The notes beneath the pieces are model-generated. The model did not search any database, had not been told where the DNA came from, and saw only the letters and a list, made by a program, of their open reading frames with translations. Of a stretch of 64,000 bases of DNA, positions 12,519-61,478 are shown piece after piece; positions within the stretch are counted from its first letter, which is position 1, and every line of letters starts with the position of its first letter. Source of the stretch: Elusimicrobiota bacterium (GTDB lineage Bacteria; Elusimicrobiota; Elusimicrobia; UBA1565; UBA9628); the NCBI GenBank assembly GCA_027452025.1, contig DAIDHI010000080.1, positions 58-64,057 of the forward strand, read 5' to 3'. A program made the translations under genes and the position numbers.

Positions 12519-15269
<2,751 letters not shown>

Positions 15270-37565: not shown

Positions 37566-38084
37566 ATGGCGGCCTCAAAAGTCGTTTTGCTCGTCGGCCA
37601 CGGGGGAATCCCCAAGGATTGCCCGCCGCAGCTCGTCTCCGAGTTCAAGCGCGAGGAGGCCCGGGCGGCCGGAAAGCCCTCCGCGCGCCTCCTCGAGCTC
37701 GACGCCCGCCTGCGCCAATGGCCCCGGACGCCGGAAAACGACCCCTATAAGCCCGGCTTGGAGGCCGTGGCGGCCTCCCTCGCCGCGGCCCTGCCGGAGC
37801 ACGACGTCGTCACCGCCTACAACGAATTCTGCGCGCCAAGCCTCGAGCAGGCCTTCGACGAGGCCGTGGCGGGCGGCGCCCGCCAGATCATTGTGATCAC
37901 CACCATGTACACGCGCGGGGGCATCCACAGCGAAAAGGAAATCCCAGCGATCCTGGAGGGCCTGCGCCGGCGCCATCCGGGAGTCGAGGCCCGCTACGTC
38001 TGGCCCTTCGATGCCGCGGCGATCGGGGAGTTCCTGGCCCGGGAAGTGCGCCGTACCGAGACGGACGCGCCGGCCCCGGCATGA
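37566..38084 (+). CDS. sirohydrochlorin chelatase CbiX-like
   Basis: VVLLVGHGGIPKD and second-half His region typical of small CbiX/SirB chelatases. Only the last 173 codons of the long track ORF are used. Confidence 0.65.
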   Translation: MAASKVVLLVGHGGIPKDCPPQLVSEFKREEARAAGKPSARLLELDARLRQWPRTPENDPYKPGLEAVAASLAAALPEHDVVTAYNEFCAPSLEQAFDEAVAGGARQIIVITTMYTRGGIHSEKEIPAILEGLRRRHPGVEARYVWPFDAAAIGEFLAREVRRTETDAPAPA

Positions 38085-45773: not shown

Positions 45774-46346
45774 ATGAACTCTTGGAAACCATGCATAAGA
45801 CGGGCGCTCGCGGCCGTCGGCGCGACGGCGCTGGCGCTGAGCGTGCTGGCGCTGCCGTCCGCCGTGTCCGCGGACACCGAAAGCGACGCGCACCCGCATA
45901 CGGGCGTGTCGATCGGAGGCAACGCGACGTACTTTCACGGCAACAAGGGCACGGCCGACGGCTGGTACGGCGGGGCGGACCTGCGGCTGCAATTCGCTCC
46001 CGCCTTGGCGCTGGAAGGCTCGGTCAACTACCAGCAGGATCGTTCCATCGACTACTACCCGGTCCAGGCGTCGCTGCTGGTCTACCTGACGCCGCAATAT
46101 CGCTTGAGCCCCTACATCCTGGGCGGCGGCACGTGGTATCTTCAAAGCGGGCCGGGCAACATGGGCAATTCGTTCGGGCCGCACGCGGGCGCAGGCCTGG
46201 AGCTCTATCTCAGCCGCGACTGGTCCATCGACAGCTCGTGGCGCTACATGTGGCTCCAGAACACCGGCACGGGCACGAACTACTTCAACCGCAGCTACAG
46301 CAGCAACACCTGGATGGTGCAGTCGGGCCTGCACTACCACTTCTAA
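45774..46346 (+). CDS. outer-membrane beta-barrel protein (OmpA-like barrel family)
   Basis: AGGAGG SD, signal peptide, alternating aromatic/Gly strands. C-terminal GLHYHF. Confidence 0.65.
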   Translation: MNSWKPCIRRALAAVGATALALSVLALPSAVSADTESDAHPHTGVSIGGNATYFHGNKGTADGWYGGADLRLQFAPALALEGSVNYQQDRSIDYYPVQASLLVYLTPQYRLSPYILGGGTWYLQSGPGNMGNSFGPHAGAGLELYLSRDWSIDSSWRYMWLQNTGTGTNYFNRSYSSNTWMVQSGLHYHF

Positions 46347-47236
46347 AAGAGGCGGACCGCGCCCCGGACGCCGCTGGAATCGCCGTGCCGGGCCCGGGCC
46401 AGCTTGGTGCGGACGTCGTCGGAGAAGACGTAGCGCCCCCAGAGCCGCGGGACGGACTGATAGAGCCGCGCGAGGTTGGAGAGCCCGCCGCCGAGCACGA
46501 TCACCTCGGGATCGAGGACGTTGATGACGGTGGCCAGCGCCCGGGCGAGGCGGTCCTCGTAGCGCTCAAGCGCCGCCGCCGCCCGAGGCTCTCCGGCGGC
46601 GGCCCGACGCGCGACCTCCTCGGACGCGACCCGCGTTTTCGCGCCCGGCTCGTAGTCGCGCGCCAGGCCCGGGCCCGACAAGAAGGTCTCGATGCAGCCG
46701 CGCTTGCCGCAGTAGCAGGACGGTCCCGGGCGCTCGTCGTCGGCCGGCCAGGGCAGCGGGTTGTGCCCCCACTCGCCGGTGATGGCGTTGGGGCCGGAGA
46801 GGATGCGTCCCGAAACCACCACGCCCCCGCCCACGCCCGTGCCGAGGATCGCGCCGAAGACGCAAGAGGCTCCGGCGGCGGCCCCGTCGGCCGCTTCCGA
46901 AAGGGCGAAACAGTCGGCGTCGTTGGCCAGCCGCACCGGCCGGCCCAGCGCCCGCGCCAAGTCCCGGTCCAGGGGCTTGCCGATGAGGCACGTCGAGTTG
47001 GCGTTCTTGACGAGGCCGGTGGCGGGCGAGAGCGCGCCCGGCATGGCGACGCCGATTCCCGCCGCCCGCGCTCCCGTCCGCTCCTCGGCCCGCCGGACGA
47101 GGCCGACGATGGCCGAAAGCGTCGCCTCGTAATCGCCGGCCGGCGTGGGCACGCGCTCCCGGAAGAGCTCCCGGTCCCCGCCGTCCAGGACGGCGGCCTC
47201 GATCTTGGTGCCGCCCAAGTCGACGCCGATGCGCAC
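46343..47236 (-). CDS. ROK family sugar kinase (N-acetylglucosamine kinase-like)
   Basis: MRIGVDLGGTKIE N-terminus. CxCGxxGCxE zinc motif (CYCGKRGCIE). Confidence 0.8.
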   Translation of the reverse strand: MRIGVDLGGTKIEAAVLDGGDRELFRERVPTPAGDYEATLSAIVGLVRRAEERTGARAAGIGVAMPGALSPATGLVKNANSTCLIGKPLDRDLARALGRPVRLANDADCFALSEAADGAAAGASCVFGAILGTGVGGGVVVSGRILSGPNAITGEWGHNPLPWPADDERPGPSCYCGKRGCIETFLSGPGLARDYEPGAKTRVASEEVARRAAAGEPRAAAALERYEDRLARALATVINVLDPEVIVLGGGLSNLARLYQSVPRLWGRYVFSDDVRTKLARARHGDSSGVRGAVRLF

Positions 47237-48467: not shown

Positions 48468-49000
48468 GAGCCGAGCACGGCCTCCGGCCTGAGATAATGG
48501 CAGGTGTAGCCGCCGGGGTCCTTCTGCAGGTAGTCCTGATGGTAATCTTCGGCGGGATAAAACGGCCCCGCGGGCGAGATCTCGGTGACCAGCGGCGCGC
48601 CCCAGCCGCCCGCCTCGTCGATCCTCCTCTTGAGCGCCTCGGCGGCCTTGCGCTGCTCCTCGGTATGGAAGAAGATCGCCGAGCGGTAGGAGGTGCCGAC
48701 GTCGTTGCCCTGCCGGTTGAGGGTCGTCGGATCGTGCATGCGGAAGAACCAGCGCAGGAGGACCTCGAAGGGCAGCCGGTCCGGGTCGTATTCGACGCGC
48801 ACGGCCTCGGCGTGGCCCGTGGCGCCGGAATGGACGGCCTCGTAGCGCGGGTTGGGCGTGCGCCCCCCGGTATAGCCGACTTCCGTGCGCGTCACGCCGG
48901 GGATGCGGCGCAGCAGCTCCTGCATGCCCCAGAAGCAGCCTCCCGCCAGGTCCACCGTCTCCGTCCGCTTGCGCTCGGTCATGTCCTCGGTCTCCGCCAA
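48464..49000 (-). CDS. msrA: peptide methionine sulfoxide reductase A
   Basis: AGGCFWGMQ active-site motif. Confidence 0.9.
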   Translation of the reverse strand: MAETEDMTERKRTETVDLAGGCFWGMQELLRRIPGVTRTEVGYTGGRTPNPRYEAVHSGATGHAEAVRVEYDPDRLPFEVLLRWFFRMHDPTTLNRQGNDVGTSYRSAIFFHTEEQRKAAEALKRRIDEAGGWGAPLVTEISPAGPFYPAEDYHQDYLQKDPGGYTCHYLRPEAVLGS

Positions 49001-49048
49001 ATGGTATAGTGCGCTGCCGGGGAAAAATTACTTTAAAAGGAAGACGAC

Positions 49049-49474
49049 ATGCCAGGGCACTTCAAGAAACGCCGCCACGCGCCGGGACCGAGCAAGAACG
49101 AGGAGAAGATCATGCGCGCCCGCCGCGCCGAGAATCAAACCCGCCTGGGCTCCCGCCACGCCGCCGTGCGTCAACTGCGCGCGGAATTGGTGTTCCTCGA
49201 CGCCCACCAGACGGAGCTCGACCGCAAGGCCGTGACCCGCGGACCCTCGGACGCCGCCTCGCTTTCCTTCTCCTGTCCCGGCCTCTGCGGGCGCAGCGTC
49301 TTCGACCTGGAGCCGCTGCTTTTGCAGAACGTGGCGTCCCGAGCGCCCTCCTTCGAGGTCGGTCTAAAATGCGCGGCGCAGGTCGCCTCCTCCGGCCAGC
49401 CCTGCGGCTGCGAGCTCAAGGGCCGCATCGACATCGACTACTTCCCGGCCGAGAACCCCGCCCCCGGCGCCTGA
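49049..49474 (+). CDS. hypothetical Cys-rich protein
   Basis: SD aaaggaag upstream. No recognisable domain. Confidence 0.35.
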   Translation: MPGHFKKRRHAPGPSKNEEKIMRARRAENQTRLGSRHAAVRQLRAELVFLDAHQTELDRKAVTRGPSDAASLSFSCPGLCGRSVFDLEPLLLQNVASRAPSFEVGLKCAAQVASSGQPCGCELKGRIDIDYFPAENPAPGA

Positions 49475-49634
49475 CGCTCCGGGCTCGAGGGCAGCCTGCT
49501 TTTCCGCCCGACAGCCCGGGTCCCTTGGCCCGCGCGGAGGGCGCGCACGACGGCGAATCTATGATCCCCATCATGGTCGCCGCATTGCCGCACTGGTAAA
49601 CTTCGAAAGCCCAGGAGGGCCCGACCCGCCAACC

Positions 49635-50300
49635 GTGCTGTCATCAAAGGAGATTCGCCGCTTCCTCGCCTGCATCAAGCCCTTCGCCGCGCTGCCCAGC
49701 CGGGAGCTCGACCGCGTCGCCAGCCACGCCGTGAGCCGGCGATTCCTGGACGGGGAGACGGTCTACGAGGAAAGCGCCGCGGCCGAGAGCATCTGGATCG
49801 TCCATCAGGGCCGCGTCGTCGTCTTTAAGAACGCGCCGCTCCAGGGCCGCTTCCCGATCGAGTCGCTGGGCCCGGGCGAGGTCTTCGGCGCCTTCTGCCG
49901 CCTCGGCGAGGATTCCGGGAAATACCCCTGCTCGGCCCTGGCCGCAGGCAAGGCGACGATCATCCGCCTGCCCGAGCGCTCCTTCTTCGAGCCTTACGAC
50001 GGCAACTCCGCCTTCGCCCGCCAGGCTTGCGCGCTCTGCTCGGTGCGCCTGGCGATCACGCTCACTCTCAGGAACGTCGATCAAGCGCCGGTCGAGACGC
50101 GCGTCGCCCACACGCTCGCGCGCCTGCACCGCGTCTACGGGGCGACGATCCCCTTGACCAAGCGCGAGCTCGCCGAGCTCGTCGGCTCAGCCCTAGAGAC
50201 CACCTTCCGGGCGCTGGCCAAACTCCAGCGCCAGGGAGTGGTCTTTTCCTCGCGCGGCAGGATCGAGATCAAGAAGCCGGAGCGGCTGACGGCTTCTTAG
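49635..50300 (+). CDS. Crp/Fnr family transcriptional regulator
   Basis: cNMP-binding beta-roll (GEVFGA...). C-terminal HTH (TKRELAELVGSALETTFRALAKLQRQG). Confidence 0.8.
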   Translation: MLSSKEIRRFLACIKPFAALPSRELDRVASHAVSRRFLDGETVYEESAAAESIWIVHQGRVVVFKNAPLQGRFPIESLGPGEVFGAFCRLGEDSGKYPCSALAAGKATIIRLPERSFFEPYDGNSAFARQACALCSVRLAITLTLRNVDQAPVETRVAHTLARLHRVYGATIPLTKRELAELVGSALETTFRALAKLQRQGVVFSSRGRIEIKKPERLTAS

Positions 50301-50302
50301 CC

Positions 50303-50902
50303 CTACTCGACGCGAAAGACCTGCCCCGTCTGCGCGCCCTCCACGCTCTTGGCGTAGGCCAGCGCCACCCGCGCGCCGGCCACGGGCTCGTAGCCCCGGA
50401 AATAGGGCCCGAAATCCTTCATCGACTCGGCGAGCACTCCGGGGCAAACGGCGTTGATGCGCCGGCCGCGCGAAAGCTCCACGGCCGCCGCGACGCAGAA
50501 CGAGTTGATCGCGCCGTTGACCATGGAAGCGGAGCTGCCGAAGCGGATCGGGTCGCGGTCGAGGATTCCGGAGGTCAGAGTGAAGGAGCCTCCGTCGCTG
50601 ACGTGCTCGCGGCCGAGGAGCACCAGGTTGACCTGCCCCATGAGCTTGTCCTTGAGGCCGATCTCGAAGCCGCTTGCGTCGAGCTGCTCGAGCGGCGCGA
50701 ACTTCACGCGCCCGGCCGCCGACACGACGGCGTCGACTTTGCCGAGCTTCGCGAACGCCGCCCTGATCGACTCGACCGAGGTGATGTCGACGCGAATGTC
50801 GCCCGTCTTGCTGCCGCCCGAAACGATCTCGTGCCGCGAGCCCAGCTCCGCGGCCACGGCCCGCCCGATGGTGCCCGACGCGCCCACGAGGAATATTTTC
50901 AT
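50303..50902 (-). CDS. SDR-family NAD(P)-dependent oxidoreductase
   Basis: MKIFLVGASGTIGRAVA Rossmann motif. Short-chain dehydrogenase length. Confidence 0.8.
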   Translation of the reverse strand: MKIFLVGASGTIGRAVAAELGSRHEIVSGGSKTGDIRVDITSVESIRAAFAKLGKVDAVVSAAGRVKFAPLEQLDASGFEIGLKDKLMGQVNLVLLGREHVSDGGSFTLTSGILDRDPIRFGSSASMVNGAINSFCVAAAVELSRGRRINAVCPGVLAESMKDFGPYFRGYEPVAGARVALAYAKSVEGAQTGQVFRVE

Positions 50903-50944
50903 GGGCCGATTATGACAATTCCAGGGGGCGGGCCGCGACGCCGG

Positions 50945-51496
50945 CTACTGATTTCCGCCAGAGGGCTGCGTCGACTCGCCGAGCTTGCCCTGCAGACGCT
51001 TGGCCTCGCCCAGGTGCCGGGCGACGGTCTCCCGGGTGCTCTCGATGAACCGCCGGAATTCCTTGTTCGACGTGGAAGCCAGGGCCGAATCGAGCTTGTC
51101 GAGCGCCTGCTGGTGCTCCTTGATCTGCGCTTCGATGTAGGCGGCGTCGAAGCCGCCGGCGCCCCGCGCCTGCAGCTGCTGCGTCGTCTCCTGCGCCTGG
51201 CTCGACAAGGCCTGGACCTCCGACGTCGCCTCCGGCTGTATTCCCTGGCGCTTGTCGACGGACGCCAACTGGGAGTCGTTCTTGCTGTGGTCTCGCAGCA
51301 TCATATGGGCGAAGCGCTTGACCGCCGGCGACTGGGCGCTCTGCTCGGCGACCTTCGCCTGGGAGATCTCCGCGTGGTTGATCGCCTGGATCATCGCCGC
51401 CGTCTGCGCGTCCGCGGGGCCCTGGTTGGAAGTCCCTTGAGCGAAAGCCGTCGCCGCCAGCGCCGCCGCCGAGACCGCCAAGATCAATCTGTTCAT
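50945..51496 (-). CDS. DUF4142 domain protein (periplasmic)
   Basis: AAGGAGG SD. Signal peptide MNRLILAVSAAALAATAFA. Paired helical repeats with HAEISQAK / EAQIKEHQQAL typical of DUF4142. Start moved. Confidence 0.6.
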   Translation of the reverse strand: MNRLILAVSAAALAATAFAQGTSNQGPADAQTAAMIQAINHAEISQAKVAEQSAQSPAVKRFAHMMLRDHSKNDSQLASVDKRQGIQPEATSEVQALSSQAQETTQQLQARGAGGFDAAYIEAQIKEHQQALDKLDSALASTSNKEFRRFIESTRETVARHLGEAKRLQGKLGESTQPSGGNQ

Positions 51497-51676
51497 AGTG
51501 TTCCTCCTTGGTTGGGCGGTCATTCTACCAGCGCGCCGCGACGGCCCGGCGTCGGCCGCGTAAGCAAGGCCGGACGGACGTCGCCGGCGTTGAATTACCT
51601 GGAGTTGCGGAAAATCGGCGGTCCCCGTCAAGCAAAAGCCCTTCCGCGAGGAAGGGCTTATCCGGCAGGGTCGAGA

Positions 51677-51751
51677 TGGTGGGCAGTATAGGATTCGAAC
51701 CTATGACCCCTGTCGTGTGAGGACAGTGCTCTACCGCTGAGCTAACTGCCC
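51677..51751 (-). tRNA. tRNA-Val (anticodon CAC)
   Basis: Minus strand GGGCAGUUAGCUCAGCGGUAGAGCACUGUCCUCACACGACAGGGGGUCAUAGGUUCGAAUCCUAUACUGCCCACCA. 7-bp acceptor stem, GGUUCGAAUCC T-arm, anticodon loop CUCACAC, encoded CCA. Confidence 0.9.
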
Positions 51752-51803
51752 GCAAAGCGGTTCGTTGATTATAGCAATTTCCCGATTTGCCACTCGCAGC
51801 CAA

Positions 51804-51832
51804 TTGACAACCCAAGTTCTCCCTTATTAGTA
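51804..51832 (+). promoter_or_regulatory. sigma70-like promoter (TTGACA-N17-TTAGTA) in AT-rich region upstream of the regulator/cluster
   Basis: TTGACA at 51804-51809. TTAGTA at 51827-51832. Local AT-rich island in a 68% GC genome. Confidence 0.4.
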
Positions 51833-51862
51833 TTTTCAGAACTTATTGAAACAATAGAAACC

Positions 51863-52378
51863 ATGAGCGACAGGCTTAAGGCGGCGAAGGCGCGGTTCGT
51901 GTCCACCTGGGGCGAGATGGCGTCCCATTGGGGCATCAACAAGACGATGGCGCGCATCCATGCGCTGCTCATCGCCTCCGACGCCGCGCTCTCGGTCGAC
52001 GAGATCATGGCAACGCTCTCGATCAGCCGCGGTAACGCCAGCATGAACCTGCGGGCGCTGATGGACTGGGGCCTGGTCAGGCGCGTTTCGGTGGGCAGCG
52101 AGCGGCGCGAGTATTTCCAGAGCGAGAAGGACGTCTGGAACATGTGCTGCCGCATCGCGCGCGAGCGCAAGAAGCGGGAGATCGAGCCCGTGATCGGCGC
52201 TCTGGAGGAATGCCTGCGCGAAGCCGGGGAAGGCCAGGACTCGGCGGCCTTCCGGCGCCGGACCAAGGAGCTCTTGGAGCTGGTCAAGACCCTCGATTTC
52301 GTGCTCGGCAAGGTCGCCGCGCAAGAGAAGAACGCCGTCATGCCGCGCGTGCTGACGCTGCTCAAGGCCATGTCATGA
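51863..52378 (+). CDS. MarR/GbsR-family transcriptional regulator
   Basis: Winged-helix pattern (SVDEIMATLSISRGNASMNLRALMDWGLVRRV) as in GbsR/MarR-like regulators. Confidence 0.65.
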   Translation: MSDRLKAAKARFVSTWGEMASHWGINKTMARIHALLIASDAALSVDEIMATLSISRGNASMNLRALMDWGLVRRVSVGSERREYFQSEKDVWNMCCRIARERKKREIEPVIGALEECLREAGEGQDSAAFRRRTKELLELVKTLDFVLGKVAAQEKNAVMPRVLTLLKAMS

Positions 52379-53319
52379 CTCCCGCTTCTTTATTAAAGGT
52401 GGAGGACTCGCTCTCCCGCGTTCGCGCGGGCCTGGAGAGCCGCGCCCTGCGCATCGAGGGCCGGGTCGGCCGGGAGCTGGCGGCCTTCGTGGCCCGCCCG
52501 GGAAAGATGCTGCGCTCGCGCTTCTGCCTGCTTTTGGGCGGCGCGCTGGGCGTGCCGCGGGACAAGGCCGAGGCGGCCGCCCGGGCGCTGGAGCTGGTGC
52601 ACAACGCCAGCCTCCTCCATGACGACTGCATCGACGAGGCCACGCTTCGCCGCAGCCGGCCCACGCCCAACGCCCTTTTCAACATCCCGACGGCGCTGCT
52701 CATCGGCGATCTGGCTTTTTCCCAAGGCCTCGAGGAGGCCGTGGACGTTTCGCCGAGCGCGGCCAAGCTCCTGGCCGCGGCGGTGCGCGAGATGTCGGTC
52801 GGGGAGCTTCAGGAGGAGTTCCTCAAGGGCGACGCCGACTTGACCGTCGACGCCTACATCGGCGTCTGCTCGCGCAAGACCGGCGCGCTCTTCGAGTGGG
52901 CCGGGGCGGTGCTCTCGGAGCTGAGCCCCTTTCCCCACGAGCAGGCGGACCCGCCGCGGCTGGCCTGCGCGGCCGGCATCCTCCTTCAGGTCGTCGACGA
53001 CATCCACGACTACACCCTGGGCGAGCGGGTGTCGGGCAAGGACGAGGGCCAGGACGTCAAGAACCGGCGGCTGACGCTGCCCTGCCTCTACGCCCTGGCC
53101 GACGCGCGGGCCCGCGAGGAGTTTCTCAAGCTTTGGCGAGGCGGCGACGCGACGGGAGTGGGACGGTTCCTCGTCGAGGGCGGGTTCGTCGCGAAGGCGC
53201 GCGGGAAGGGGCGGGAGCTGGCCGACTCCATGACGGCGATGGCGCGCGCCCTGCCCTGCCGCGCCGAGGCCTCCCAATTGGCCTTCTTCATCGACCTGCT
53301 GGTCAAGAGGGAATTTTGA
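52375..53319 (+). CDS. polyprenyl diphosphate synthase (trans-isoprenyl diphosphate synthase family)
   Basis: First Asp-rich motif LLHDDCIDE and second VVDDIHDY. ATGA overlap with the regulator stop. Confidence 0.85.
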   Translation: MTPASLLKVEDSLSRVRAGLESRALRIEGRVGRELAAFVARPGKMLRSRFCLLLGGALGVPRDKAEAAARALELVHNASLLHDDCIDEATLRRSRPTPNALFNIPTALLIGDLAFSQGLEEAVDVSPSAAKLLAAAVREMSVGELQEEFLKGDADLTVDAYIGVCSRKTGALFEWAGAVLSELSPFPHEQADPPRLACAAGILLQVVDDIHDYTLGERVSGKDEGQDVKNRRLTLPCLYALADARAREEFLKLWRGGDATGVGRFLVEGGFVAKARGKGRELADSMTAMARALPCRAEASQLAFFIDLLVKREF

Positions 53320-53320
53320 G

Positions 53321-53761
53321 ATGTCTTACGAGGCCCTGGTCAAGAAAGCGTGGGCGAGCGGGACGTTCAAGCTCGACGAGGCCGAGGCCGGAAAGGCCGA
53401 TCCGTCGGCGGCCGTCAGTCGCGAGGCCGTGCGCCGGGAGATGGAACAGATCGCGGAGAGGGAGACCTGGGACGCCGCAAGCTGCTTCTCCGCCCATAAA
53501 GAGGGAATCATGAAACTAGCTCCGTTCGTGAAGTTCCGTGAAGAGAAGTTCGGCGCCGTGCTCTTTGAGACGCGCTCGGAGAAGGTCTATACGCTCAGCC
53601 CGAGCGGCGCCGCCGTCGTGCGGGAAGTGGTCGCCGGGGCCACTTCCAGCGACCTGCCGGCCAGGCTCAAGCAGAAGTTCGAGGACCCCACCGGGAAGAT
53701 GGAGCAGGAAGCGGCAAGCTTCCTGGCCCAGCTCAAGGACAAGGGCCTCGTCGTCGAGTAG
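53321..53761 (+). CDS. PqqD/MftB-like RiPP recognition element protein with about 65-aa N-terminal extension
   Basis: C-terminal VKFREEKFGAVLFETRSEKVYTLSPSGAAVVREVVAG...AASFLAQLKDKGLV matches the PqqD/MftB pattern. SD aagaggga before the ATG. Confidence 0.65.
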   Translation: MSYEALVKKAWASGTFKLDEAEAGKADPSAAVSREAVRREMEQIAERETWDAASCFSAHKEGIMKLAPFVKFREEKFGAVLFETRSEKVYTLSPSGAAVVREVVAGATSSDLPARLKQKFEDPTGKMEQEAASFLAQLKDKGLVVE

Positions 53762-53767
53762 GGCGCC

Positions 53768-54739
53768 GTGACCGCGCAAGCTCCCGAAAGCGCGCCGCAG
53801 ACGGGCACCGAGGATCTCGGCGCCCCGCTCTACGTCGCCTGGCAGATCACCAACGAGTGCAACCTGGCCTGCCTACACTGCATCGAGGAGTCCGGGCCGG
53901 GAAAGGCCTTCAAGGACGAGCTGACCACCGAGGAGGCTTACCGCCTCATCGACCAGCTCGCGCAAGGCGAGGTGCCCTACGTCTCCTTCTCGGGCGGCGA
54001 GCCGATGGTCCGGCCGGACTTCTTCGGCATGGTCGAGAGAATCACTCGGGGCGGCGTCGGGCTCAAGATCGAGACCAACGGCCATTACCTAACCGCTGAC
54101 AACTGCCGCCGCCTCAAGGACCTGGGCGTCAAGGCCGTCCAGGTCTCCCTCGACGGCGCCAGCCCCGCCTCGTTCAACAAGATGCGGGTCCACGGCCGCT
54201 TCGAGTCGGCGCTGGAAGGCATCGGCCGGCTGCGCGAGGCGGGCGTGCCGATCGAAATCAACTTCGTGCCGGCGAAGTTTAATATCCGCGAGATCGGCGC
54301 CGCCGTCGACTTGGCCTACCGGCTCGGGGCGTATTCGTTCTATACCGGCAAGCTGATGTATACCGGCAACGCCGTGCGCACCTGGGGCATCACCGCCCCC
54401 GACGAGGCGGAGTATCCCGCCTACTTCGCCGCGCTCAAGGAGAAGGCCAAGGAGTACGAAGGCCGCATGCGCGTCTACTACCACGAGATGGGGCTGCTCG
54501 AGGAGCTGCGCTACCGCCTGAAAAACCCCGCCGCCCTCTTCATCGTCCTGCCCAACGGCAAGGTCAAGCTCATCAACGCCCTGCCCTTTATCTGCGGCGA
54601 CCTGCGCCGCCAGAGCCTGGGCCAGGTCTGGCAGAGCTTCCAGCTCGCCTGGAAAAGCCCGCGGGTCAGCGCCTTCATCGACGAGCTCGCCGCCGACCCC
54701 TCGATCCTGTCTCGTCTGCACCGCTGGGAGGAGGTCTAG
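53768..54739 (+). CDS. radical SAM enzyme (PqqE/MftC/NirJ-like N-terminus, no SPASM cysteines), paralog 1
   Basis: APLYVAWQITNECNLACLHC CX3CX2C. SFSGGEP and KIETNG motifs. Single Cys in the C-terminal half. Confidence 0.8.
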   Translation: MTAQAPESAPQTGTEDLGAPLYVAWQITNECNLACLHCIEESGPGKAFKDELTTEEAYRLIDQLAQGEVPYVSFSGGEPMVRPDFFGMVERITRGGVGLKIETNGHYLTADNCRRLKDLGVKAVQVSLDGASPASFNKMRVHGRFESALEGIGRLREAGVPIEINFVPAKFNIREIGAAVDLAYRLGAYSFYTGKLMYTGNAVRTWGITAPDEAEYPAYFAALKEKAKEYEGRMRVYYHEMGLLEELRYRLKNPAALFIVLPNGKVKLINALPFICGDLRRQSLGQVWQSFQLAWKSPRVSAFIDELAADPSILSRLHRWEEV

Positions 54740-54745
54740 GCGGAC

Positions 54746-55633
54746 ATGAGCCTCGTCGGCAAGGCCGCGGCGCTGGTGCGCTACCGCTTCTTTCTCTACG
54801 CGGGCCTCCTGCCCTATCTGCTGGGCGCGGCCTGGGCCTACGGCGTGGACCGGCAGTTTCGGCCCGGCGTCTTCTGGCTCGGCCTGCTCGGGATCTTCCT
54901 CGCCGTCGTCGGAGTCGAGAGCTTCAACGAGTATTTCGACGCGAAGATGGGGACCGACCGGGTCTTCAATCCCGACGCCGACGAGAACATCCCGGAGTGG
55001 ATGTTCTCGCTCGGCGTGGCCGCCTTCGCGCTGGCCGCGGCGGTCGGCTTCTACCTGGCCTGGGAAGGCGGCTGGCCCGTGGTCCTCTATACTCTGCTCG
55101 GCGGCGCCGCCGCCGTCTGGTACGTGGGCCCGCCCGTGCGCTGGGTCTACCGGGGCCTTGGCGAGGCCGTGATCGGGCTGTCCTACGGCCCGTGGATGAC
55201 GCTGGGCTCGGTGCAGCTGCACACGCACCGTTTTTCCTGGGGCGCGCTGGCCGCGTCGCTCGTCCCCGGCCTGCTGATCATGGCGCTGGCCGTGGTCAAC
55301 AACATCCCCGATTATCATCAGGACCGGCTGGTCGGCAAGAGGAACCTCGTCGTGAGGCTGGGCCGGGAGAAGGGACGGCTGCTCTACCTCGCCTTGTCGG
55401 GGCTGGGCTTGGCCGTGATCGTCGCCGGAGCGGCGGCGGGGACGTTCCCGCGCCTTTGCCTGCTGGCCGCGCTGCCCGGCGCCGCCCTTTGGTGGGCGAG
55501 CCTGCGCGCCGGCCGGGACACCTGGGACACGCCCCGCGCCTTCCTGCCGGCCATCAAGAGCATCGTGCAATGCTACGCCTTGACGACGCTGATCTTCGCC
55601 TTGGCGGTGGCGTTCGGAGCGCGCCTGGCATGA
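54746..55633 (+). CDS. UbiA-family aromatic prenyltransferase
   Basis: 8-9 TM helices. Asp-rich motifs NEYFDAKMGTD and NNIPDYHQD. Confidence 0.85.
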   Translation: MSLVGKAAALVRYRFFLYAGLLPYLLGAAWAYGVDRQFRPGVFWLGLLGIFLAVVGVESFNEYFDAKMGTDRVFNPDADENIPEWMFSLGVAAFALAAAVGFYLAWEGGWPVVLYTLLGGAAAVWYVGPPVRWVYRGLGEAVIGLSYGPWMTLGSVQLHTHRFSWGALAASLVPGLLIMALAVVNNIPDYHQDRLVGKRNLVVRLGREKGRLLYLALSGLGLAVIVAGAAAGTFPRLCLLAALPGAALWWASLRAGRDTWDTPRAFLPAIKSIVQCYALTTLIFALAVAFGARLA

Positions 55634-56592
55634 GGATCGATTCCCTGAGCGCCCCGGCGATGGTCGCCTGGCAGCTCACGCGCGACTGCAACCTCGCCTG
55701 CCTGCACTGCTGCACGGACTCCGCGCCGGGCCGGGCGCTGCCCGGCGAGCTGCCGCGCGAGAGAGCCCTGTCTCTGGCGCGCGAGATCGCCGAGGCGGGC
55801 GTGCCTTACGCGCTGATCGCCGGCGGCGAGCCGAGCTTGGTCTCGCATTTCGGCGAGGTCTGCGCCGCGCTTTCCCAGGGCGGCGTCTGGCTCAAGGTCG
55901 AGACCAACGGCCAGAGCTTCGACGTCTCGGCGCTGCGCGGCCTGCGCGTGCGCTCGGTGCAAGTCTCGCTCGACGGCGCGACTCGGCGCGTCTACGCCCG
56001 ACAGCGGCCGGGCGGCGACCTGGAGAAGGCCCTGGCCTGCGGCCGCGCCGTGCGCGCCGCCGGGCTGCCCCTGGAGATCACGTTCGCCCCCACTCTCCTC
56101 AACATCGACGAGGCCGGCGCCGTCATCGACTTGGCCCTGGAGCTCGGAGCCTTCCGCTTCAACACCGGAAGGCTCATGCGATTGGGCACCGCCGCCAAGC
56201 TCTGGCAGCGCCTGGAGCCTTCGCAGGAGCGCTACGAAAGGTTCCTCGCGCTGCTCGAGCGGCGCGAGCGCGAGCTGGCCGGACGCCTGGAGCTGTGCTT
56301 CCGGCCGTTTTCGCTGCCCGAGGATGCCCGGGCCCTCAGACGCGAGCCCCCGGGGACCTTGCTGATCCTCCCCGACGGCCGCGTGAAAGTGGCCGCGCCG
56401 CTGCCCTACACCTGTTTCGACGTGACGAAACGTCCGTTTCTCGAGGCGTGGGACGCGTATCGCAAGTCTTTCGGCGATCCGCGCGTCCTGCGCGCCTTCG
56501 AGCGCCTCGCCGCCGACCCCGCGTCGTCGGCGAAGGCCAATGAGTGGGTCGACCTGGAGTCCGTCGCCTTCGATTTGCCGGCCGTGGTCTGA
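55629..56592 (+). CDS. radical SAM enzyme, paralog 2
   Basis: MVAWQLTRDCNLACLHC. IAGGEP, KVETNG. ATGA overlap with the UbiA stop. Confidence 0.8.
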
Positions 56593-56612
56593 CCGGCAGA
56601 CAGGAGTCAAGC

Positions 56613-56735
56613 ATGAACGACCAGAAGAAGACCGTGACCGTCGTGAAGGCCGAGCCGAAGCTCGTTTGGCAGACCCCCTCCCTGGAGGAGGTCTCCGATC
56701 GGGTGATGGCGCAGCCTTACATCCGGTTCACGTGA
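56613..56735 (+). CDS. 40-aa candidate precursor peptide (PqqA-like leader)
   Basis: MNDQKKTVTVVKAEPKLVWQTPSLEEVSDRVMAQPYIRFT. caggag SD 7 nt upstream. Located between radical SAM paralogs 2 and 3. Stop overlaps GTG of paralog 3. Confidence 0.5.
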   Translation: MNDQKKTVTVVKAEPKLVWQTPSLEEVSDRVMAQPYIRFT

Positions 56736-57700
56736 CGCACGGGAGAGGGGCGTCCGTGGGCGACTACGGCGCCCCTCTCTTTCTGGCCTGGCAGCTGACC
56801 AACCGCTGCACGGGCAGCTGCCTGCACTGCTGCGAGGAATCCGGGCCCGACAAGGCTTGGCCCGACGAGATGAGCCGCGAGCAGTGCTTGTCGCTGGCCC
56901 GGCAGATCGCGCGCATGGGCGTGCCTTACGTGGCCTTCGGCGGCGGCGAGCCGATGGGCTCGCCCCACGTCTGGGAGATCTTCGAGATCCTGGCGCGCGG
57001 CGGCGTCGAGATCAAGATCGAGACCAACGGGCTGCTCCTGGACGACGCGGCCTGCGACCGGCTCAAGGCCTTGAACGTCGCCTGCGTGCAGATCTCCATC
57101 GACGGGGCGACGGCCGCCGTTCACGAGGGCCTGCGTCCCGGCTCCGGCTACGCGCCGGCCTGGGAGGCGATCGACCGCCTGGTCTCGCGCGGCCTGGGTC
57201 CCGAGCTCGTTTTCATCCCCACCAAGCTCAACGTCTCCGGCGCCGTCGCCGTCTATGAGCAAGCGGCGCGGCGGGGCGTGCGCACGTTCGTGACGGGGCC
57301 GCTCATGCGCCTGGGGCGGGCCGCCGCGGCCTGGGAGGCCCTGGCCTGCTCCGAGGAGCAATGGGCCGCCGCGGCCGAGGCCCTGCGGCAGGCCTCGCTG
57401 CGCGAAAAAGGCCCGCGCCTGGCGCTCTATCCTTGGGGCATCCAGGCCGAGATGAAGACCCGCGCCGAAAGCCCGCAGGCCATGGTGCTGGTCGTGCCCA
57501 ACGGCCGGGTCAAGCTCCTCAACGCCCTGCCCTTCGCCGCCGCCGACCTCAAGACCGAGACGCTGGCCGCGGCCTGGCCGAAGGTCGCCGCCGCCTGGCG
57601 GCGGCCCGAGGTCCAGGACTTCGTGCGCCGCGCGCAAAGCGACCCCGGTCTTCTGCGCCACGCCAACGAGTGCTGGGACGTGGCCCTCGCCGGCGCCTAA
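56731..57700 (+). CDS. radical SAM enzyme, paralog 3
   Basis: APLFLAWQLTNRCTGSCLHC. FGGGEP, KIETNG. GTG start overlapping the peptide stop (GTGA). Confidence 0.75.
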
Positions 57701-57744
57701 AACTCGCTGCGACGGGCGGCAAAACTGCTATCCTGAGACGTCGC

Positions 57745-58191
57745 ATGGCGGCTCTCTTTCCTCACGGCTGGATCCATTACTTGGCGGGCGGCCTGCTCAT
57801 CGGCTGCGGGGTCTCGCTGATCTATCTCTGCACCGGCGTGGCCGCCGGCACGAGCTCTTTTTTCAGCGCGCAGTGGTCCTGGTTCTCGCGCCTGGGCTTT
57901 TTTAGGCAGGAGCGCTGGCGCGAGGAACGCGGCTGGCGGCTGATCTACGCCGCCGGCCTGGTCGCCGGAGCGCTGCTTTGGCGGCTCGAGACCGGCGTCT
58001 GCCTGACGACGTCCGTGGAGCCGCGCAGGCTCCTCGTCGGCGGCCTGCTGGCCGGCTTCGGTGCGCGCCTTTCGGGCGGCTGCACGGCCGGCCACGGCAT
58101 CTGCGGCCTCGCCTCTCTCAAGAAGGAGTCTTTCGTGGCCGTTCCCGTCTTCCTGCTCACGGCGATCCTCGTGGCGAGGCTCCTGCCGTGA
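57745..58191 (+). CDS. YeeE/YedE-family membrane protein (sulfur-compound transporter half)
   Basis: LSGGCTAGHGICG signature. 4 TM. Confidence 0.7.
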   Translation: MAALFPHGWIHYLAGGLLIGCGVSLIYLCTGVAAGTSSFFSAQWSWFSRLGFFRQERWREERGWRLIYAAGLVAGALLWRLETGVCLTTSVEPRRLLVGGLLAGFGARLSGGCTAGHGICGLASLKKESFVAVPVFLLTAILVARLLP

Positions 58192-58598
58192 AGCGCGCCG
58201 CCGCGGCGCTCTTGGGCGGCGTCCTCTTCGGCCTGGGCCTGGCCGTTTCCGGCATGGTCCGGCCCGAGACCGTCCTCGATTTCCTCCACCTGCGCGACAT
58301 GGGCCTTTTGCTCGTGCTCGGCGGGGCGGCGGGCGTCAGCCTCCTCGCCTTCCAGCTCGCGCCGCGGCTGCTCGGCCGGCCGGCGTTCGGAGGAAGCTTC
58401 GAGCCGCATCCCGGGCGCCTGAGCGGACGCACCTTCGCCGGCGCGGCGATCTTCGGGGCGGGCTGGGGCCTGTGCGGAGTCTGCCCGGGGCCGGCCGTGG
58501 CGGGCCTGGGCGCGGGCCTGACGGCGCTCTTGTGGTCCGTCGCCGGGCTCGCGCTCGGCGCCTGGCTGCACGGGCTCTATCAAGAGCTGGCCGGCTAG
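58188..58598 (+). CDS. YeeE/YedE-family membrane protein (second half)
   Basis: GWGLCGVCPG signature. GTGA overlap with the preceding gene. Confidence 0.7.
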   Translation: MKRAAAALLGGVLFGLGLAVSGMVRPETVLDFLHLRDMGLLLVLGGAAGVSLLAFQLAPRLLGRPAFGGSFEPHPGRLSGRTFAGAAIFGAGWGLCGVCPGPAVAGLGAGLTALLWSVAGLALGAWLHGLYQELAG

Positions 58599-58599
58599 C

Positions 58600-59760
58600 T
58601 CAGGTTCCGATCTTGTCGCTGCGCGCCGGCAGGGGATTGTCCCCCGGCCGGAACGGATGAGCCAGCAGGTAATGCGCGTAGCGCTGCACGCCCCACAACG
58701 GCGGCTGGCGCAGCGCCTGCCGGTAGGCGTCCCGGGCGTCCGCCCGGCGTCCGAGCAAGTCCAGCGACTCGCCCTTGAACAAGCTCAAGACGCTGCAGAA
58801 GCGCTGGCCGCGCGGCACGAATTGCGCGGCCCGTTCGTAGTCGACGAGGGCTTCCTGGGGCCGGCCCTCCATCTGGCGGGCCAGGCCGAGGAAGCCGCGG
58901 CCGATGGCGCGGTCGAGCGGCCGGTAGAACGGCGCTTTGGCGCGCGCGTGGTCCAGATACCGGCGCGCCTGCTCGCCTAGGCCCTGCGCGTCGCCCAGGC
59001 GCACGAGCCCGACGAGCCGCAGGAAGGCGAAGAAGGGGCTGCCGGGATAGCGCTTGCCGGCGTCCTCCAGGATCTGCCAGGCCTCCTGGGGCTTCTTCTC
59101 GAAGGTCCAGTCGATGGCGACGAGCAGGAGCTTGGCGGCCATGGCGCTGAAGCGGCCTTGCGAGGCCAGCGCCAATTCGTGAAGACCGCGCGCCTTGCCG
59201 CCGCCGCCCATGAAGGCCAGGAAGCGCACGATGCGAGACAGCGTGGCCAGGTAGTAGTCGAAGGCTCCAAGGCCGAGATAGGCGTCGTCGAGGGCCGGGT
59301 CGAGGGAAACGGCGCGCCGCTCCGCCTTGTAGGCGCGGCGGCCGTCGAAGTAGGCGCGCACCCATTTCTGGCGCGCGGCCTCCCAGCGCCCGCGCAGGCC
59401 GTAGGCCGCGCCCAGATAAAGGTAGGCCTCGGGATCCTTGGCGTGGCCGCGCGCGTAGGACGAGGCGTCGGCGATCGCCGTCGAGACGGCGGCGGTGAAC
59501 CTCGCTTCCTCCGGGCTGCCCGGAAGCGCCAGGAGGTTTTCCATGCGCCACCAGGTCGCCGTGGCGTAGCCCAGGGAGAGCACGGGGTCGCCGGGGCGCT
59601 GCGCCATCAAGACGGCGAAGTCCTGTTCCGCGCCGTCGTAGTCGCACATGTAGAGCGCGTCGATGCCCTTGGTGACGGCGGCCTGGTCCTCGGGCGTCAT
59701 GGCTCGGGCCGCGCCAGGGATCGCGAGCAGCGCCGCCAACGCCAGGCCCCGAAGGTTCAC
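58600..59760 (-). CDS. secreted TPR-like repeat protein
   Basis: Signal peptide MNLRGLALAALLAIPGAARA. Repeated helical TPR-like units (AYLYLGAAYGLRGRWEAA etc.). Confidence 0.55.
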   Translation of the reverse strand: MNLRGLALAALLAIPGAARAMTPEDQAAVTKGIDALYMCDYDGAEQDFAVLMAQRPGDPVLSLGYATATWWRMENLLALPGSPEEARFTAAVSTAIADASSYARGHAKDPEAYLYLGAAYGLRGRWEAARQKWVRAYFDGRRAYKAERRAVSLDPALDDAYLGLGAFDYYLATLSRIVRFLAFMGGGGKARGLHELALASQGRFSAMAAKLLLVAIDWTFEKKPQEAWQILEDAGKRYPGSPFFAFLRLVGLVRLGDAQGLGEQARRYLDHARAKAPFYRPLDRAIGRGFLGLARQMEGRPQEALVDYERAAQFVPRGQRFCSVLSLFKGESLDLLGRRADARDAYRQALRQPPLWGVQRYAHYLLAHPFRPGDNPLPARSDKIGT

Positions 59761-59860
59761 GGGGGCATCATACCCGATTTTGAAGCGTGATTTTATCGCC
59801 TAGCCGCGCCGAGTTTTGTTAGGATGATCTCAAGCCGTTTCCATTTCAGGAGGAATCTCA

Positions 59861-60241
59861 ATGCCAATCACCACAGATCGTCAGACGTCCGTCGCGGGAG
59901 CCGTGGACTATTTCCGCGCCAAGCTCCAGTTCGAGACGACGCCGCACCAAGTCAAGGCCGCCGTCGAGCATGGCGACATCGTGCTCCTCGACGTGCGCGA
60001 CGCCGAGTCCTACAAGGCCGAACGCATCCCCGGCGCCAAGAACGTCCCCATGACCGAGCTCGAGAAGCACCTCAAGAGCCTGCCCAAGGACAAGACCCTC
60101 GTGACCTACTGCTGGAACATCACCTGCGCCATGGCGCCCAAGGCGGCCCTCATGCTGGCCGAGAAAGGCTTCCAGGTCCAGGAGCTCGTCGGCGGCCTGG
60201 AGGAATACCGCAAGAAGTTTCCCACCGAAAAGGCCAAGTAG
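59861..60241 (+). CDS. rhodanese-domain sulfurtransferase
   Basis: AGGAGG SD. VLLDVRDAESYKAERIPGAKNVP. Active-site loop CWNITC. Confidence 0.8.
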   Translation: MPITTDRQTSVAGAVDYFRAKLQFETTPHQVKAAVEHGDIVLLDVRDAESYKAERIPGAKNVPMTELEKHLKSLPKDKTLVTYCWNITCAMAPKAALMLAEKGFQVQELVGGLEEYRKKFPTEKAK

Positions 60242-60259
60242 ATCGCCTGTCGCCGTCTC

Positions 60260-60294
60260 GACCCCGCTCGCCCCGCGAGCGGGGTCTTTTTTTT
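60260..60294 (+). terminator. rho-independent terminator
   Basis: GACCCCGCTCG-cccg-CGAGCGGGGTC followed by T8. Confidence 0.8.
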
Positions 60295-61478
60295 CAGCGC
60301 AAGACCAGCCGCGAGTCCGGCGGCCACAGGCGCGGCGTCTGATCCCGGCCGAAGCCCCGGGCCGCGTCCTCGACGCGCGGCGCGAGATAGCGCTCGAGGC
60401 CCGCGGCCGTCACGCGGCCGGAGGCGTCGGCGGCCTCGCCGTCGAGGCCCTTGAGCAGGTAATACGTGAAGGCGCCATGGCCGACGCGGTCGAGCGAGAC
60501 GGAGACTTGCCTCGGGCCGGAGGCCGTCAGGACGGTCAGCGTGGGGTCGCGAGGCAGAGCTGATTCGACCCGCGTGACCAGCGGGCGGACGTTGGAGGCC
60601 AGGACCGAGCGCGGGCCCGCGCCCGAAAAGCAGGCGTCGAGCGCGACGAAGGTTTGGCGCGCGCCGAGCTCGGAAAGGTCGGCATAGAGGCGTTTGAGCG
60701 GGAAGCCAGTTTTCTTGAGGTAGTTCGCATCGCCGTCCCAGGGCACCAGATAAGCCGCGCCGGTGACCGGGTCCGGCGCTCCGTGGCCGGAAAAGAAGAA
60801 ATAGACCCGGCTGTCCTCCTTGACGCGGCGAGGCAGCCACAGCTCCAGGTATTTCTCCAGGCTCGCCAGCCCGGCCTTGTCGTCGGCCAGGAAGACCACG
60901 TTGCGCGGCGGCACGCCCAGGGCGAGCAGGTGCCGGTAGACGGCCCGGGCGTCGCGCACGGCGTAGCGCGCGTCGGGCAGGTCCGAATAATGCTCGACGC
61001 CGACGGCCACGGCCAGGTCGTGCGGCCGCTGCGGCAGCCGGTAGTCCGGCTCGGCCAGCGGGTCCTCGGAGCCGGGCAGCGGCCCGGGCGCGGACGGCTG
61101 GGCCCCGGCCGCCGGCAGCGAGGCGAGCAGGCCGGGGTCGGAGAGCAGCCGGCGGGCGACCTTCCGCGACAAGTCGCGCATCGCGCCCGACCACGTCCAG
61201 AGGCTGCGCGTCTCGACTGAAAAAAGCCGCCGCGAGCGGGCGCCGTCGTAGACGTCCGCGGTGAATCCCACGCCGCGCCCGAGCTCTATTTGCAGGTCGC
61301 AGTCCCGCTTGCCCTGCCGCGCGCGGTCAAACTCCGCGGCGTAGCGCAGAAACAGGGGAACCAGCGGCTCGTCGTCGGCGGTCTTGGCCGAGACGCAGAC
61401 CGCGGCGTCGAACCCCGCGCGCGCCGGCGCGGCGGCGGGCCCGAAGGACGACAGAAGGAGCAGAAGCGCGGCGGTCAT
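60294..61478 (-). CDS. caspase-domain (peptidase C14) secreted protein
   Basis: Signal peptide. His-Gly (YFFFSGHG) and Cys (ALDACFSG) catalytic dyad blocks. Confidence 0.7.
   Translation of the reverse strand: MTAALLLLLSSFGPAAAPARAGFDAAVCVSAKTADDEPLVPLFLRYAAEFDRARQGKRDCDLQIELGRGVGFTADVYDGARSRRLFSVETRSLWTWSGAMRDLSRKVARRLLSDPGLLASLPAAGAQPSAPGPLPGSEDPLAEPDYRLPQRPHDLAVAVGVEHYSDLPDARYAVRDARAVYRHLLALGVPPRNVVFLADDKAGLASLEKYLELWLPRRVKEDSRVYFFFSGHGAPDPVTGAAYLVPWDGDANYLKKTGFPLKRLYADLSELGARQTFVALDACFSGAGPRSVLASNVRPLVTRVESALPRDPTLTVLTASGPRQVSVSLDRVGHGAFTYYLLKGLDGEAADASGRVTAAGLERYLAPRVEDAARGFGRDQTPRLWPPDSRLVLR

Follow-up and report, generated by a model that had tools for sequence, protein, structure and literature searches.

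The stretch of DNA analyzed here (64,000 nucleotides of contig DAIDHI010000080.1, assembly GCA_027452025.1, from an Elusimicrobiota bacterium; defined as the "window") encodes a cassette in which a polyprenyl diphosphate synthase and a UbiA-family prenyltransferase are embedded in a locus of the type that produces ribosomally synthesized and post-translationally modified peptides (RiPPs). The window is GC-rich (~68% GC), and its genes were chosen by third-position GC content (GC3) plus translation. All genes of the cassette are on the forward strand. The first (51863..52378) encodes a MarR/GbsR-like winged-helix regulator of 171 amino acids (aa; Pfam MarR_2, 29.2 bits), which scores 44.9 bits, below cutoff, with the NCBIfam CudC model. 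Next are a trans-polyprenyl diphosphate synthase, apparently of the long-chain type (314 aa, 52375..53319; Pfam PF00348), a PqqD-domain protein (146 aa, 53321..53761; Pfam PqqD, 37.8 bits), the first of three radical S-adenosylmethionine (SAM) enzymes (rSAM1, 323 aa, 53768..54739), the UbiA-family enzyme (295 aa, 54746..55633; Pfam PF01040) and rSAM2 (320 aa, 55630..56592). A 40-aa precursor peptide gene, MNDQKKTVTVVKAEPKLVWQTPSLEEVSDRVMAQPYIRFT, follows at 56613..56735 with AGGAG 8 nt 5′ of its ATG, and the last gene, rSAM3 (314 aa, 56756..57700), has a GTG start with GGGAGAGGGG upstream. We spotted the 40-aa open reading frame (ORF) via a called gene of 39 aa at the equivalent place in a related genome; a 386-aa ORF listed at 56540 was rejected as an over-extension that runs across the peptide gene.

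The stop codon of the regulator overlaps the start of the synthase gene in an ATGA at 52375-52378, and that of the UbiA gene overlaps the start of rSAM2 in a second ATGA at 55630-55633, whereas the PqqD-domain and rSAM1 genes stand between the synthase and UbiA genes. The initial annotation had reported both overlaps, the positions of the two isoprenoid genes and four motifs in their products, all of which we find as described, and had proposed that the two genes are embedded in a RiPP-type locus. This embedding recurs in several phyla. The contig index contains no copy of the window's own UbiA protein. With one genome scanned per GTDB species, 259 loci encoding a UbiA relative were identified; the best 80 were fetched, so that the readable sequence comprised the 64-kb window and these ~20-kb loci. 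The order regulator, synthase, PqqD protein, rSAM1, UbiA, rSAM2, peptide, rSAM3 is colinear in all 80 non-redundant loci, which are from different species, and the UbiA gene lies between rSAM1 and rSAM2 in every one; such an arrangement is not fortuitous. The PqqD and rSAM1 genes are present in 71 of the 71 loci with enough sequence, rSAM2 and the peptide in 68 of 68 (the peptide ORF always between rSAM2 and rSAM3), rSAM3 in 63 of 64 and the synthase in 52 of 64. In 17 Elusimicrobiota loci the regulator gene is found at the equivalent place. The proteobacterial loci, together with a few from Elusimicrobiota, lack the synthase gene, and the cassette comprises six or seven genes. Proteobacteria have IspB. 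Because the loci were gathered by UbiA similarity, they test the association of UbiA with the cassette; the converse was covered by the peptide search.

Most of the fetched loci are from Elusimicrobiota metagenome-assembled genomes (MAGs), and about ten are from MAGs of Beta-, Gamma- and Alphaproteobacteria, the UbiA proteins of which share 60-65% identity with that of the window. UbiA relatives form thousands of metagenome protein clusters at 90% identity, the closest of which are named Elusimicrobia, and a search seeded with a proteobacterial UbiA orthologue yielded over 2000 more, every one from an environmental assembly. The hosts of the cassette are all uncultured MAGs or metagenome contigs, with no isolate seen among the relatives searched. 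Two fusion proteins, P0140 (synthase-PqqD, 380 aa, JGI 3300050046) and P0265 (UbiA-radical SAM, 485 aa, on a 134-kb contig), would be Rosetta-stone evidence for physical coupling if real. Each is a single observation that could be an assembly artefact or a frameshift at overlapping stop and start codons, and P0140 gives only weak support because it is on one 1.7-kb contig.

The UbiA-family protein matches the UbiA superfamily model at 83.1 bits (gathering threshold 34.2). Its two Asp-rich motifs, NEYFDAKMGTD and NNIPDYHQD, can be written as N61-E-Y-F-D65-x5-D71 and N185-x3-D189-x3-D193, and N61, D65, D71, N185, D189 and D193 are invariant among 17 UbiA homologues. The N-x3-D-x5-D spacing of the first motif had been considered atypical, but it is the normal spacing of the MenA/UBIAD1 clade, as found in both E. 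coli MenA and UBIAD1, and the protein has both MenA/UBIAD1-type motifs (N-x-Y-x-D-x3-G-x-D and N-N-x-x-D-x3-D). It aligns with E. coli MenA at 27% identity (E = 1e-10), and the two Asp-rich motifs line up with NDYGDAVKGSD and NNLRDINSD of that protein; its similarity to E. coli UbiA is not significant (E = 0.72).

None of the seven cassette proteins reaches an NCBIfam equivalog cutoff. In the case of the UbiA-family protein the matches are to MenA-type models, besides weak matches to the chlorophyll synthase models BchG/ChlG (35.8 and 32.3 bits). All nine MenA models (TIGR00751, NF004751 and others) score it below their cutoffs, with a best score of 109.3 bits (cutoff 264) and a score of 63.5 bits for TIGR00751 (cutoff 102.15). 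Models of haem O synthase, digeranylgeranylglyceryl phosphate (DGGGP) synthase and 4-hydroxybenzoate UbiA gave no NCBIfam match at E values up to 0.01, and with no match to either subfamily the identities of haem O synthase and DGGGP synthase, which the initial annotation had left to a subfamily search, were rejected. The AlphaFold2 model has an all-helical membrane fold (predicted local distance difference test score, pLDDT, 74; predicted template modeling score, pTM, 0.76). UBIAD1 is the sole PDB sequence match and also the best fold match (8djk; template modeling score, TM, 0.69-0.72), followed by DGGGP synthase and archaeal UbiA homologues; TM scores for UBIAD1, DGGGP synthase, ApUbiA and AfUbiA are 0.55-0.72, and DGGGP synthase matches in fold only (12-13% identity). 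Based on the model scores, the alignment with MenA and the sequence and fold matches to UBIAD1, we assign the protein to the MenA/UBIAD1 clade as a divergent member. Enzymes of this clade prenylate quinol rings.

The synthase scores 140.8 bits with Pfam polyprenyl_synt (cutoff 27) and shares 28% identity with E. coli IspB, with ELVHNASLLHDDCID aligned to EFIHTATLLHDDVVD. Its motifs LLHDDCIDE and VVDDIHDY contain the first and second Asp-rich sites (DDCID and DDIHD). The residues before the first DDxxD, which had been pointed out as predictive of chain length, are of the long-chain type: positions -5 and -4 are small (Ala and Ser; Ala and Thr in IspB), as they are in 56 family members. The nearest solved structures are nearly all hexa-, octa-, nona-, decaprenyl or solanesyl synthases (C30-C50), and the top NCBIfam matches are to long-chain models, every one below cutoff. 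From the established chain-length rules for trans-prenyl synthases, we infer that the product is medium or long, i.e., C30 or more.

The PqqD-domain protein has two N-terminal helices (residues 1-57) followed by a PqqD-type RiPP recognition element (residues 64-146), which in the AlphaFold2 model (pLDDT 78) consists of three strands and then three helices. The best Foldseek matches are to leader-bound lasso peptide B1 proteins (target TM 0.79-0.80) and PqqD (5sxy). The proteobacterial proteins are 82-83 aa in length and contain the PqqD domain alone. The top hit of a search with the PqqD-domain protein, the 2515-aa protein P0121, had 35 matches (317 bits) to the N-terminal helices, but it is repetitive (low-complexity or eukaryote-like) and the matches were judged to be spurious.

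All three radical SAM enzymes match Pfam Radical_SAM (PF04055; 92.1, 68.4 and 84.5 bits for rSAM1, rSAM2 and rSAM3, threshold 29.5) and have the Cx3Cx2C and GGE motifs, the cysteines of which are kept in 97-100% of sequences. They are paralogues with 37-41% pairwise identity (rSAM1 shares 38% with rSAM2 and 41% with rSAM3). The motifs of rSAM1 are CNLACLHC and GGEP, its C-terminal region is SPASM-like and Cys-poor (LPNGKVKLINALPFICGDL), and its top NCBIfam models are AhbD (147.5 bits), NirJ2 (132.5 bits) and MftC (126.3 bits), all below cutoff. Those of rSAM2, which also has CNLACLHC, are MftC (82.8 bits) and AhbD (82.6 bits), both below cutoff, and that of rSAM3 (CTGSCLHCC) is MftC (110.7 bits, cutoff 265). 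The nearest PDB structures are SkfB (6efn) and PqqE (6c8v) for rSAM1, SkfB and PqqE for rSAM2, and SkfB for rSAM3; both SkfB and PqqE are maturases of RiPPs. The SPASM Pfam model matched none of the three enzymes and all lack the C-terminal Cx2Cx5Cx3C motif; rSAM3 has no conserved Cys at the PFxCGDL motif position. Cysteines conserved outside the cluster motif are 113 and 276 in rSAM1, 28, ~138, 223 and 262 in rSAM2, and 26 and 110 in rSAM3, and rSAM2 could conceivably hold an unconventional cluster. Since the SPASM-like region is retained without its cysteine motif, the three enzymes appear to fall outside the SPASM/twitch enzymes in the defining sense.

The leader of the peptide carries W19-x2-P22-x-L24, and the core, VMAQPYIRFT, contains a single Tyr (Tyr36). 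All recovered copies end in this core, which is preceded by W-[EQ]-x-P-x-[LMI]-E-[ED]-[VI]-[ST]-x-[RQ], with variable sequence at the N-terminus. In 74 copies the final 10 residues are unchanged, with two to four synonymous codons in use at most positions (four each for Ala, Pro and Arg). The core is thus invariant despite synonymous codon variation, which indicates that selection acts on the protein sequence. A collection of 5.8 billion proteins contains 56 clusters of the peptide, each either labelled "hypothetical protein" or left without a name; the peptide has no NCBIfam model, and a full-text literature search with the core sequence PYIRFT found no paper containing it. The cassette peptide motif W-x-x-P-x-L resembles the Y-x-x-P-x-L carried by the leaders bound to the lasso peptide B1 proteins above.

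When anchored on W-x-x-P, the peptide and PqqA, the precursor of pyrroloquinoline quinone (PQQ), align without gaps and have a common layout, W-x2-P-x3-[DE]-[ILV]-x8-Y-x4-stop. They coincide at the W and the P, at an acidic residue (+7) followed by an aliphatic one (+8), at the Tyr (+17) and at a stop codon placed four residues beyond that Tyr. The PqqA set comprised a K. pneumoniae sequence, which we verified against an annotated record, and four further PqqA sequences. The pattern derived from PqqA occurred in only 2 of 2,000,000 shuffles of the peptide. Because this test supports the layout, whereas the PqqA profile comparison alone is not significant, we describe the peptide as having an apparently PqqA-like layout and claim no homology.

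Of 37 ORFs scanned in the 18-64 kb part of the window, none belongs to a men, ubi or mqn family, in agreement with the earlier observation that no such partners are nearby, and men and mqn genes are absent from every neighbourhood read. In flanking DNA, GC3-based ORF calling also caught antisense shadow ORFs, so gene neighbourhoods were judged from Pfam scans, tblastn and pre-called genes. Among the 16 proteobacterial loci, 13 have quinol-linked anaerobic respiratory modules within 10 kb of the cassette, several of them immediately adjacent and on the same strand. In L091, L095 and L077, frdC (cytochrome b; not detected in L077), frdA and frdB are directly upstream on the same strand. In L079, a DctQM transporter separates the cassette from frdCAB, which is again upstream and on the same strand, and in L093 a gene for Fnr and then frdBAC are just downstream. 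FrdC and FrdA of L091 are of the epsilonproteobacterial type (NF010072, 384 bits, cutoff 187; NF006383, 1119 bits, cutoff 663). This Wolinella-type fumarate reductase uses menaquinol in model organisms. L090 and L092 have a NapC/CymA-like cytochrome and MtrC-MtrA-MtrB directly upstream, and FdhE and formate dehydrogenase directly downstream. MtrCAB modules are near the cassette in L064, L071, L074 and L094 (in L094 also a NapC/CymA-like cytochrome), MtrAB-like genes in L066 and an MtrB-like gene in L075, and L064 and L074 encode a NiFe hydrogenase large subunit.

The short precursor gene, variable leader, conserved core, adjoining maturases and PqqD-fold recognition element are hallmarks of RiPP loci, and we compared the cassette with pathways that share parts of it. 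It resembles the PQQ pathway in its short precursor with a layout superimposable on that of PqqA, in the PqqD-fold chaperone, in that PqqE is among the nearest solved relatives of the radical SAM enzymes, and in that its core is as invariant as that of the cofactor precursor. It differs in having a Met in place of the cross-linked Glu, and thus no E-x3-Y motif, three radical SAM paralogues rather than one, none of them with the SPASM cysteine motif, no PqqB, PqqC or PqqF/G homologues in the cassette or any neighbourhood read, and an additional membrane prenyltransferase and prenyl diphosphate synthase. The PqqE model scores the three radical SAM enzymes at 90, 52 and 46 bits (cutoff 381), the PqqD model scores 20 bits (cutoff 46) and the PqqA model gave no match. 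Likenesses to the mycofactocin system are the Tyr region at the C-terminus of the peptide, a radical SAM enzyme (MftC is the best match for rSAM2 and rSAM3) and a PqqD-like chaperone. However, the cassette core ends in QPYIRFT rather than the GVY of MftA, there are no MftD, MftE or MftF genes, and scores are 126, 83 and 111 bits for rSAM1, rSAM2 and rSAM3 with the MftC model (cutoff 265) and 22.4 bits with the MftB model (cutoff 33). Moreover, mycofactocin is glycosylated, whereas the product of the cassette is proposed to be prenylated.

The end steps of menaquinone synthesis are matched by the MenA/UBIAD1 spacing and fold of the UbiA-family protein, its pairing with a long-chain-like synthase and the respiratory enzymes, including Wolinella-type fumarate reductase, beside proteobacterial cassettes. 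Unlike in that pathway, the enzyme is distant from MenA (27% identity to the E. coli protein, MenA cutoffs missed), no men or mqn genes are nearby, and the only plausible source of an acceptor in the cassette is the peptide with the radical SAM enzymes, not chorismate. Prenylated RiPPs (ComX/ComQ, cyanobactins) also combine a ribosomal peptide locus with isoprenoid transfer. Those systems use the soluble synthase-like ComQ or an ABBA-fold enzyme and short C5-C15 donors, whereas the cassette transferase is an integral-membrane UbiA-family enzyme and its donor is probably long-chain. Because defining features of each were looked for and are absent, the cassette appears to be a relative of the RiPP and peptide-derived cofactor kind that lies outside the PQQ, mycofactocin and menaquinone pathways. 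Full-text literature searches found no paper describing it, nor one on UbiA-type prenylation in radical SAM RiPP loci; the radical SAM clusters treated in a paper on groundwater Elusimicrobia adjoin nitrogenase paralogues and differ from this cassette.

In combination, the results strongly support the view that the synthase and the MenA-like enzyme belong specifically to a cassette of peptide, chaperone and radical SAM genes. Given the conserved embedding, the lack of men or ubi partners and the lack of an assignment to haem O, DGGGP or 4-hydroxybenzoate enzymes, an acceptor supplied by the peptide and radical SAM steps, as suggested in the initial annotation, would be the most economical, and the conserved precursor gene strengthens this suggestion. 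In the pathway that we infer, the 40-aa peptide would be translated and its W-x-x-P-x-L leader held by the PqqD domain, which would present the VMAQPYIRFT core to the radical SAM enzymes. These may remodel the region around Tyr36 by cross-linking and/or cleavage, by analogy with PqqE acting on Glu-Tyr and MftC on Val-Tyr. The MenA-like enzyme would then alkylate the aromatic ring formed in this way, using a long polyprenyl chain that comes from the cassette synthase or, in Proteobacteria, from IspB. The end product would be a Tyr-derived aromatic anchored in the membrane, most likely a quinone-like redox carrier in anaerobic electron transport. On balance we consider it somewhat probable that the cassette makes such a peptide-templated, radical-SAM-tailored and polyprenylated compound. 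A redox carrier is favoured over a lipopeptide because the core is invariant, the transferase belongs to a quinol-prenylating clade, the synthase is like those that make quinone tails and the neighbours in Proteobacteria are respiratory. Given the invariant Met, sulfur-containing, putatively Tyr-derived quinones such as caldariellaquinone may be a chemical analogue.

Several points weigh against this proposal. The radical SAM enzymes lack the auxiliary-cluster cysteines of the SPASM domain that PqqE and MftC require. Profile comparison of the peptide with PqqA gives weak scores (median 1.3 bits, a value that ~3.5% of shuffles reach), and the W-x-x-P-x-hydrophobic motif may reflect only general binding to a recognition element. 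In M. extorquens PqqA, the cross-link joins Glu16 with Tyr20 (PMC10906245), and in all copies of the cassette peptide the equivalent Glu is replaced by Met at Y-4. The cassette includes no conserved protease, hydroxylase, oxidase or methyltransferase, which leaves the origin of the quinone oxygens and the release of a small molecule unexplained. The neighbours of the cassette in Elusimicrobiota are housekeeping genes (aminotransferase, purH, ligA, nusB and riboflavin genes) and not respiratory. Lastly, the respiratory association is based on 16 loci that are not independent events, as some are from related MAGs, and it could reflect shared anaerobic regulation.

The missing protease and oxidase, which would be needed to excise and oxidize a small molecule, fit more readily with a prenylated lipopeptide, in which the radical SAM enzymes cross-link the core and the UbiA-family enzyme prenylates the Tyr (or Phe) of a peptide that persists as a RiPP anchored in the membrane; its role would be structural, signalling or antimicrobial, with no redox function. 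The leader and core, recognition element and radical SAM maturases are the full hallmarks of a RiPP, prenylated peptides such as ComX and the cyanobactins are known, and some Elusimicrobiota loci, but no others, have a pair of caspase-family peptidase genes after rSAM3. We nonetheless consider a lipopeptide rather unlikely. A core that is constant across Elusimicrobiota and three proteobacterial classes follows the pattern of the cofactor precursors PqqA and MftA and not that of RiPP natural products, the cassette has no exporter or immunity gene, and the suggested tail of C30 or longer is typical of quinones and carrier lipids. A lipopeptide would also leave the recurring adjacency to quinol-linked respiratory operons unexplained.

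The substrate could also be a small molecule unrelated to the peptide, such as a tetrapyrrole or a metabolite-derived aromatic, with the small ORF and PqqD protein serving as scaffold or regulator. The best NCBIfam models for rSAM1 are those of haem b synthase (AhbD) and NirJ2, a HemN-like gene adjoins the cassette in L089, and the UbiA superfamily, which includes haem O and chlorophyll synthases, is represented here by a protein with weak BchG/ChlG matches. This explanation is improbable, as the AhbD and NirJ scores are far under cutoffs of 500 to 650 bits and the transferase is clearly MenA/UBIAD1-like with no haem O synthase match; it also offers no reason why an invariant peptide gene, kept by purifying selection, should always sit between rSAM2 and rSAM3 and be accompanied by a recognition element. 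As the orthologues are automatically annotated as 1,4-dihydroxy-2-naphthoate (DHNA) octaprenyltransferase and have motifs of the MenA type, the UbiA and synthase genes might alternatively be ordinary menaquinone genes (MenA and HepT/IspB-like) beside an unrelated RiPP cluster. However, the UbiA gene is interleaved among radical SAM genes with overlapping codons, its product misses every MenA equivalog cutoff, proteobacterial cassettes keep it without the synthase, and no men or mqn genes occur in the neighbourhoods examined. The interleaved synteny, found in 80 of 80 loci from several phyla, essentially excludes this explanation.

With regard to expression of the operon, a promoter-like site (TTGACA, 18 nt spacer, TAGTAT; 51804..51833, forward strand) lies 30 nt 5′ of its first gene. 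It is a consensus match only, with two sites found against 0.4 expected in shuffles. An Rfam scan of positions 49000-60500 identified only a tRNA and no riboswitch; the tRNA-Val gene (anticodon CAC, 51677-51751, reverse strand) is between a DUF4142 gene and the promoter-like site. Genes for Crp/Fnr-family regulators are located near the cassette in the window (49635-50300, forward strand), in L093 (13340-14107; 176.8 bits with the Fnr subfamily model) and in L091 (19597-20319), which would fit anaerobic control.

Eight of the fetched Elusimicrobiota loci, like the window, have caspase-family (Peptidase_C14) genes near the cassette, usually shortly after rSAM3. Caspase-domain genes are located at 60294-61502 (reverse strand) in the window and at 13021-15551 (forward strand) in L096, where two of them begin 5 nt past rSAM3 on the same strand, and also in L025, L031, L032, L036, L038, L040, L042 and L049. 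These peptidases are candidates for peptide-trimming proteases, though they are absent from most loci. In L094, from a Caldimonas MAG, a gene for a Polyketide_cyc2/RatA-type START-fold protein (13121-13558, reverse strand) is directly downstream of the cassette, between it and the NapC/CymA-like cytochrome gene. This is the fold of COQ10, which binds lipids and quinones.

Directly after rSAM3 in the window are two genes for YeeE/YedE-type (Sulf_transp, DUF6691) membrane proteins (57739-58191 and about 58185-58598, forward strand), and a rhodanese gene (59861-60241, forward strand) is located further downstream. As tblastn found them beside the cassette only in the window, they were left out of it and are probably unrelated, although their sulfur theme is curious beside the invariant Met of the core. 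A copper amine oxidase gene (38081-39865, forward strand; Pfam Cu_amine_oxid, 202 bits) has no apparent link to the cassette; such enzymes make their own Tyr-derived quinone cofactor, trihydroxyphenylalanine quinone (TPQ). An 840-aa B12-binding radical SAM protein (30630-33152, reverse strand), encoded beside a glycosyltransferase-2/TPR protein (29654-30622, reverse strand), is unrelated to the cassette paralogues. Three ORFs with coding-type GC3 had no Pfam match at E values up to 1e-4 (34006-35943, forward strand, 645 aa; 44711-45655, reverse strand, 314 aa; 26827-28197, reverse strand, 456 aa), and two ROK-family kinase/regulator genes (46343-47236 and 61327-62493, both reverse strand) are within 15 kb of each other.

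The component families of the cassette are all known, and it is their combination that is new. Peptide-derived cofactors are few, with PQQ and mycofactocin the classic cases, and to our knowledge none is lipidated. A UbiA prenyltransferase within a PqqA/PqqD/radical-SAM cassette would join RiPP chemistry to that of isoprenoid quinones. For the present, the label of DHNA octaprenyltransferase carried by the orthologues means that menaquinone synthesis may be wrongly read into metabolic reconstructions of the hosts. Should the product prove to be a redox carrier, the low-potential chains (such as fumarate reduction and extracellular electron transfer) of ubiquinone-type Proteobacteria would have an explanation. 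We suggest tentatively, as a possibility that we hold with less confidence than the general proposal above, that the cassette is an oxygen-independent, ribosomal-peptide-templated route to a low-potential polyprenyl quinone or quinone-like carrier that feeds menaquinol-type respiratory enzymes. Such a carrier would supply Wolinella-type fumarate reductase, CymA/MtrCAB extracellular electron transfer, formate dehydrogenase and NiFe hydrogenase, would serve Proteobacteria that otherwise have only ubiquinone as well as respiring Elusimicrobiota, and would be the first lipid cofactor in respiration to have a ribosomal origin.

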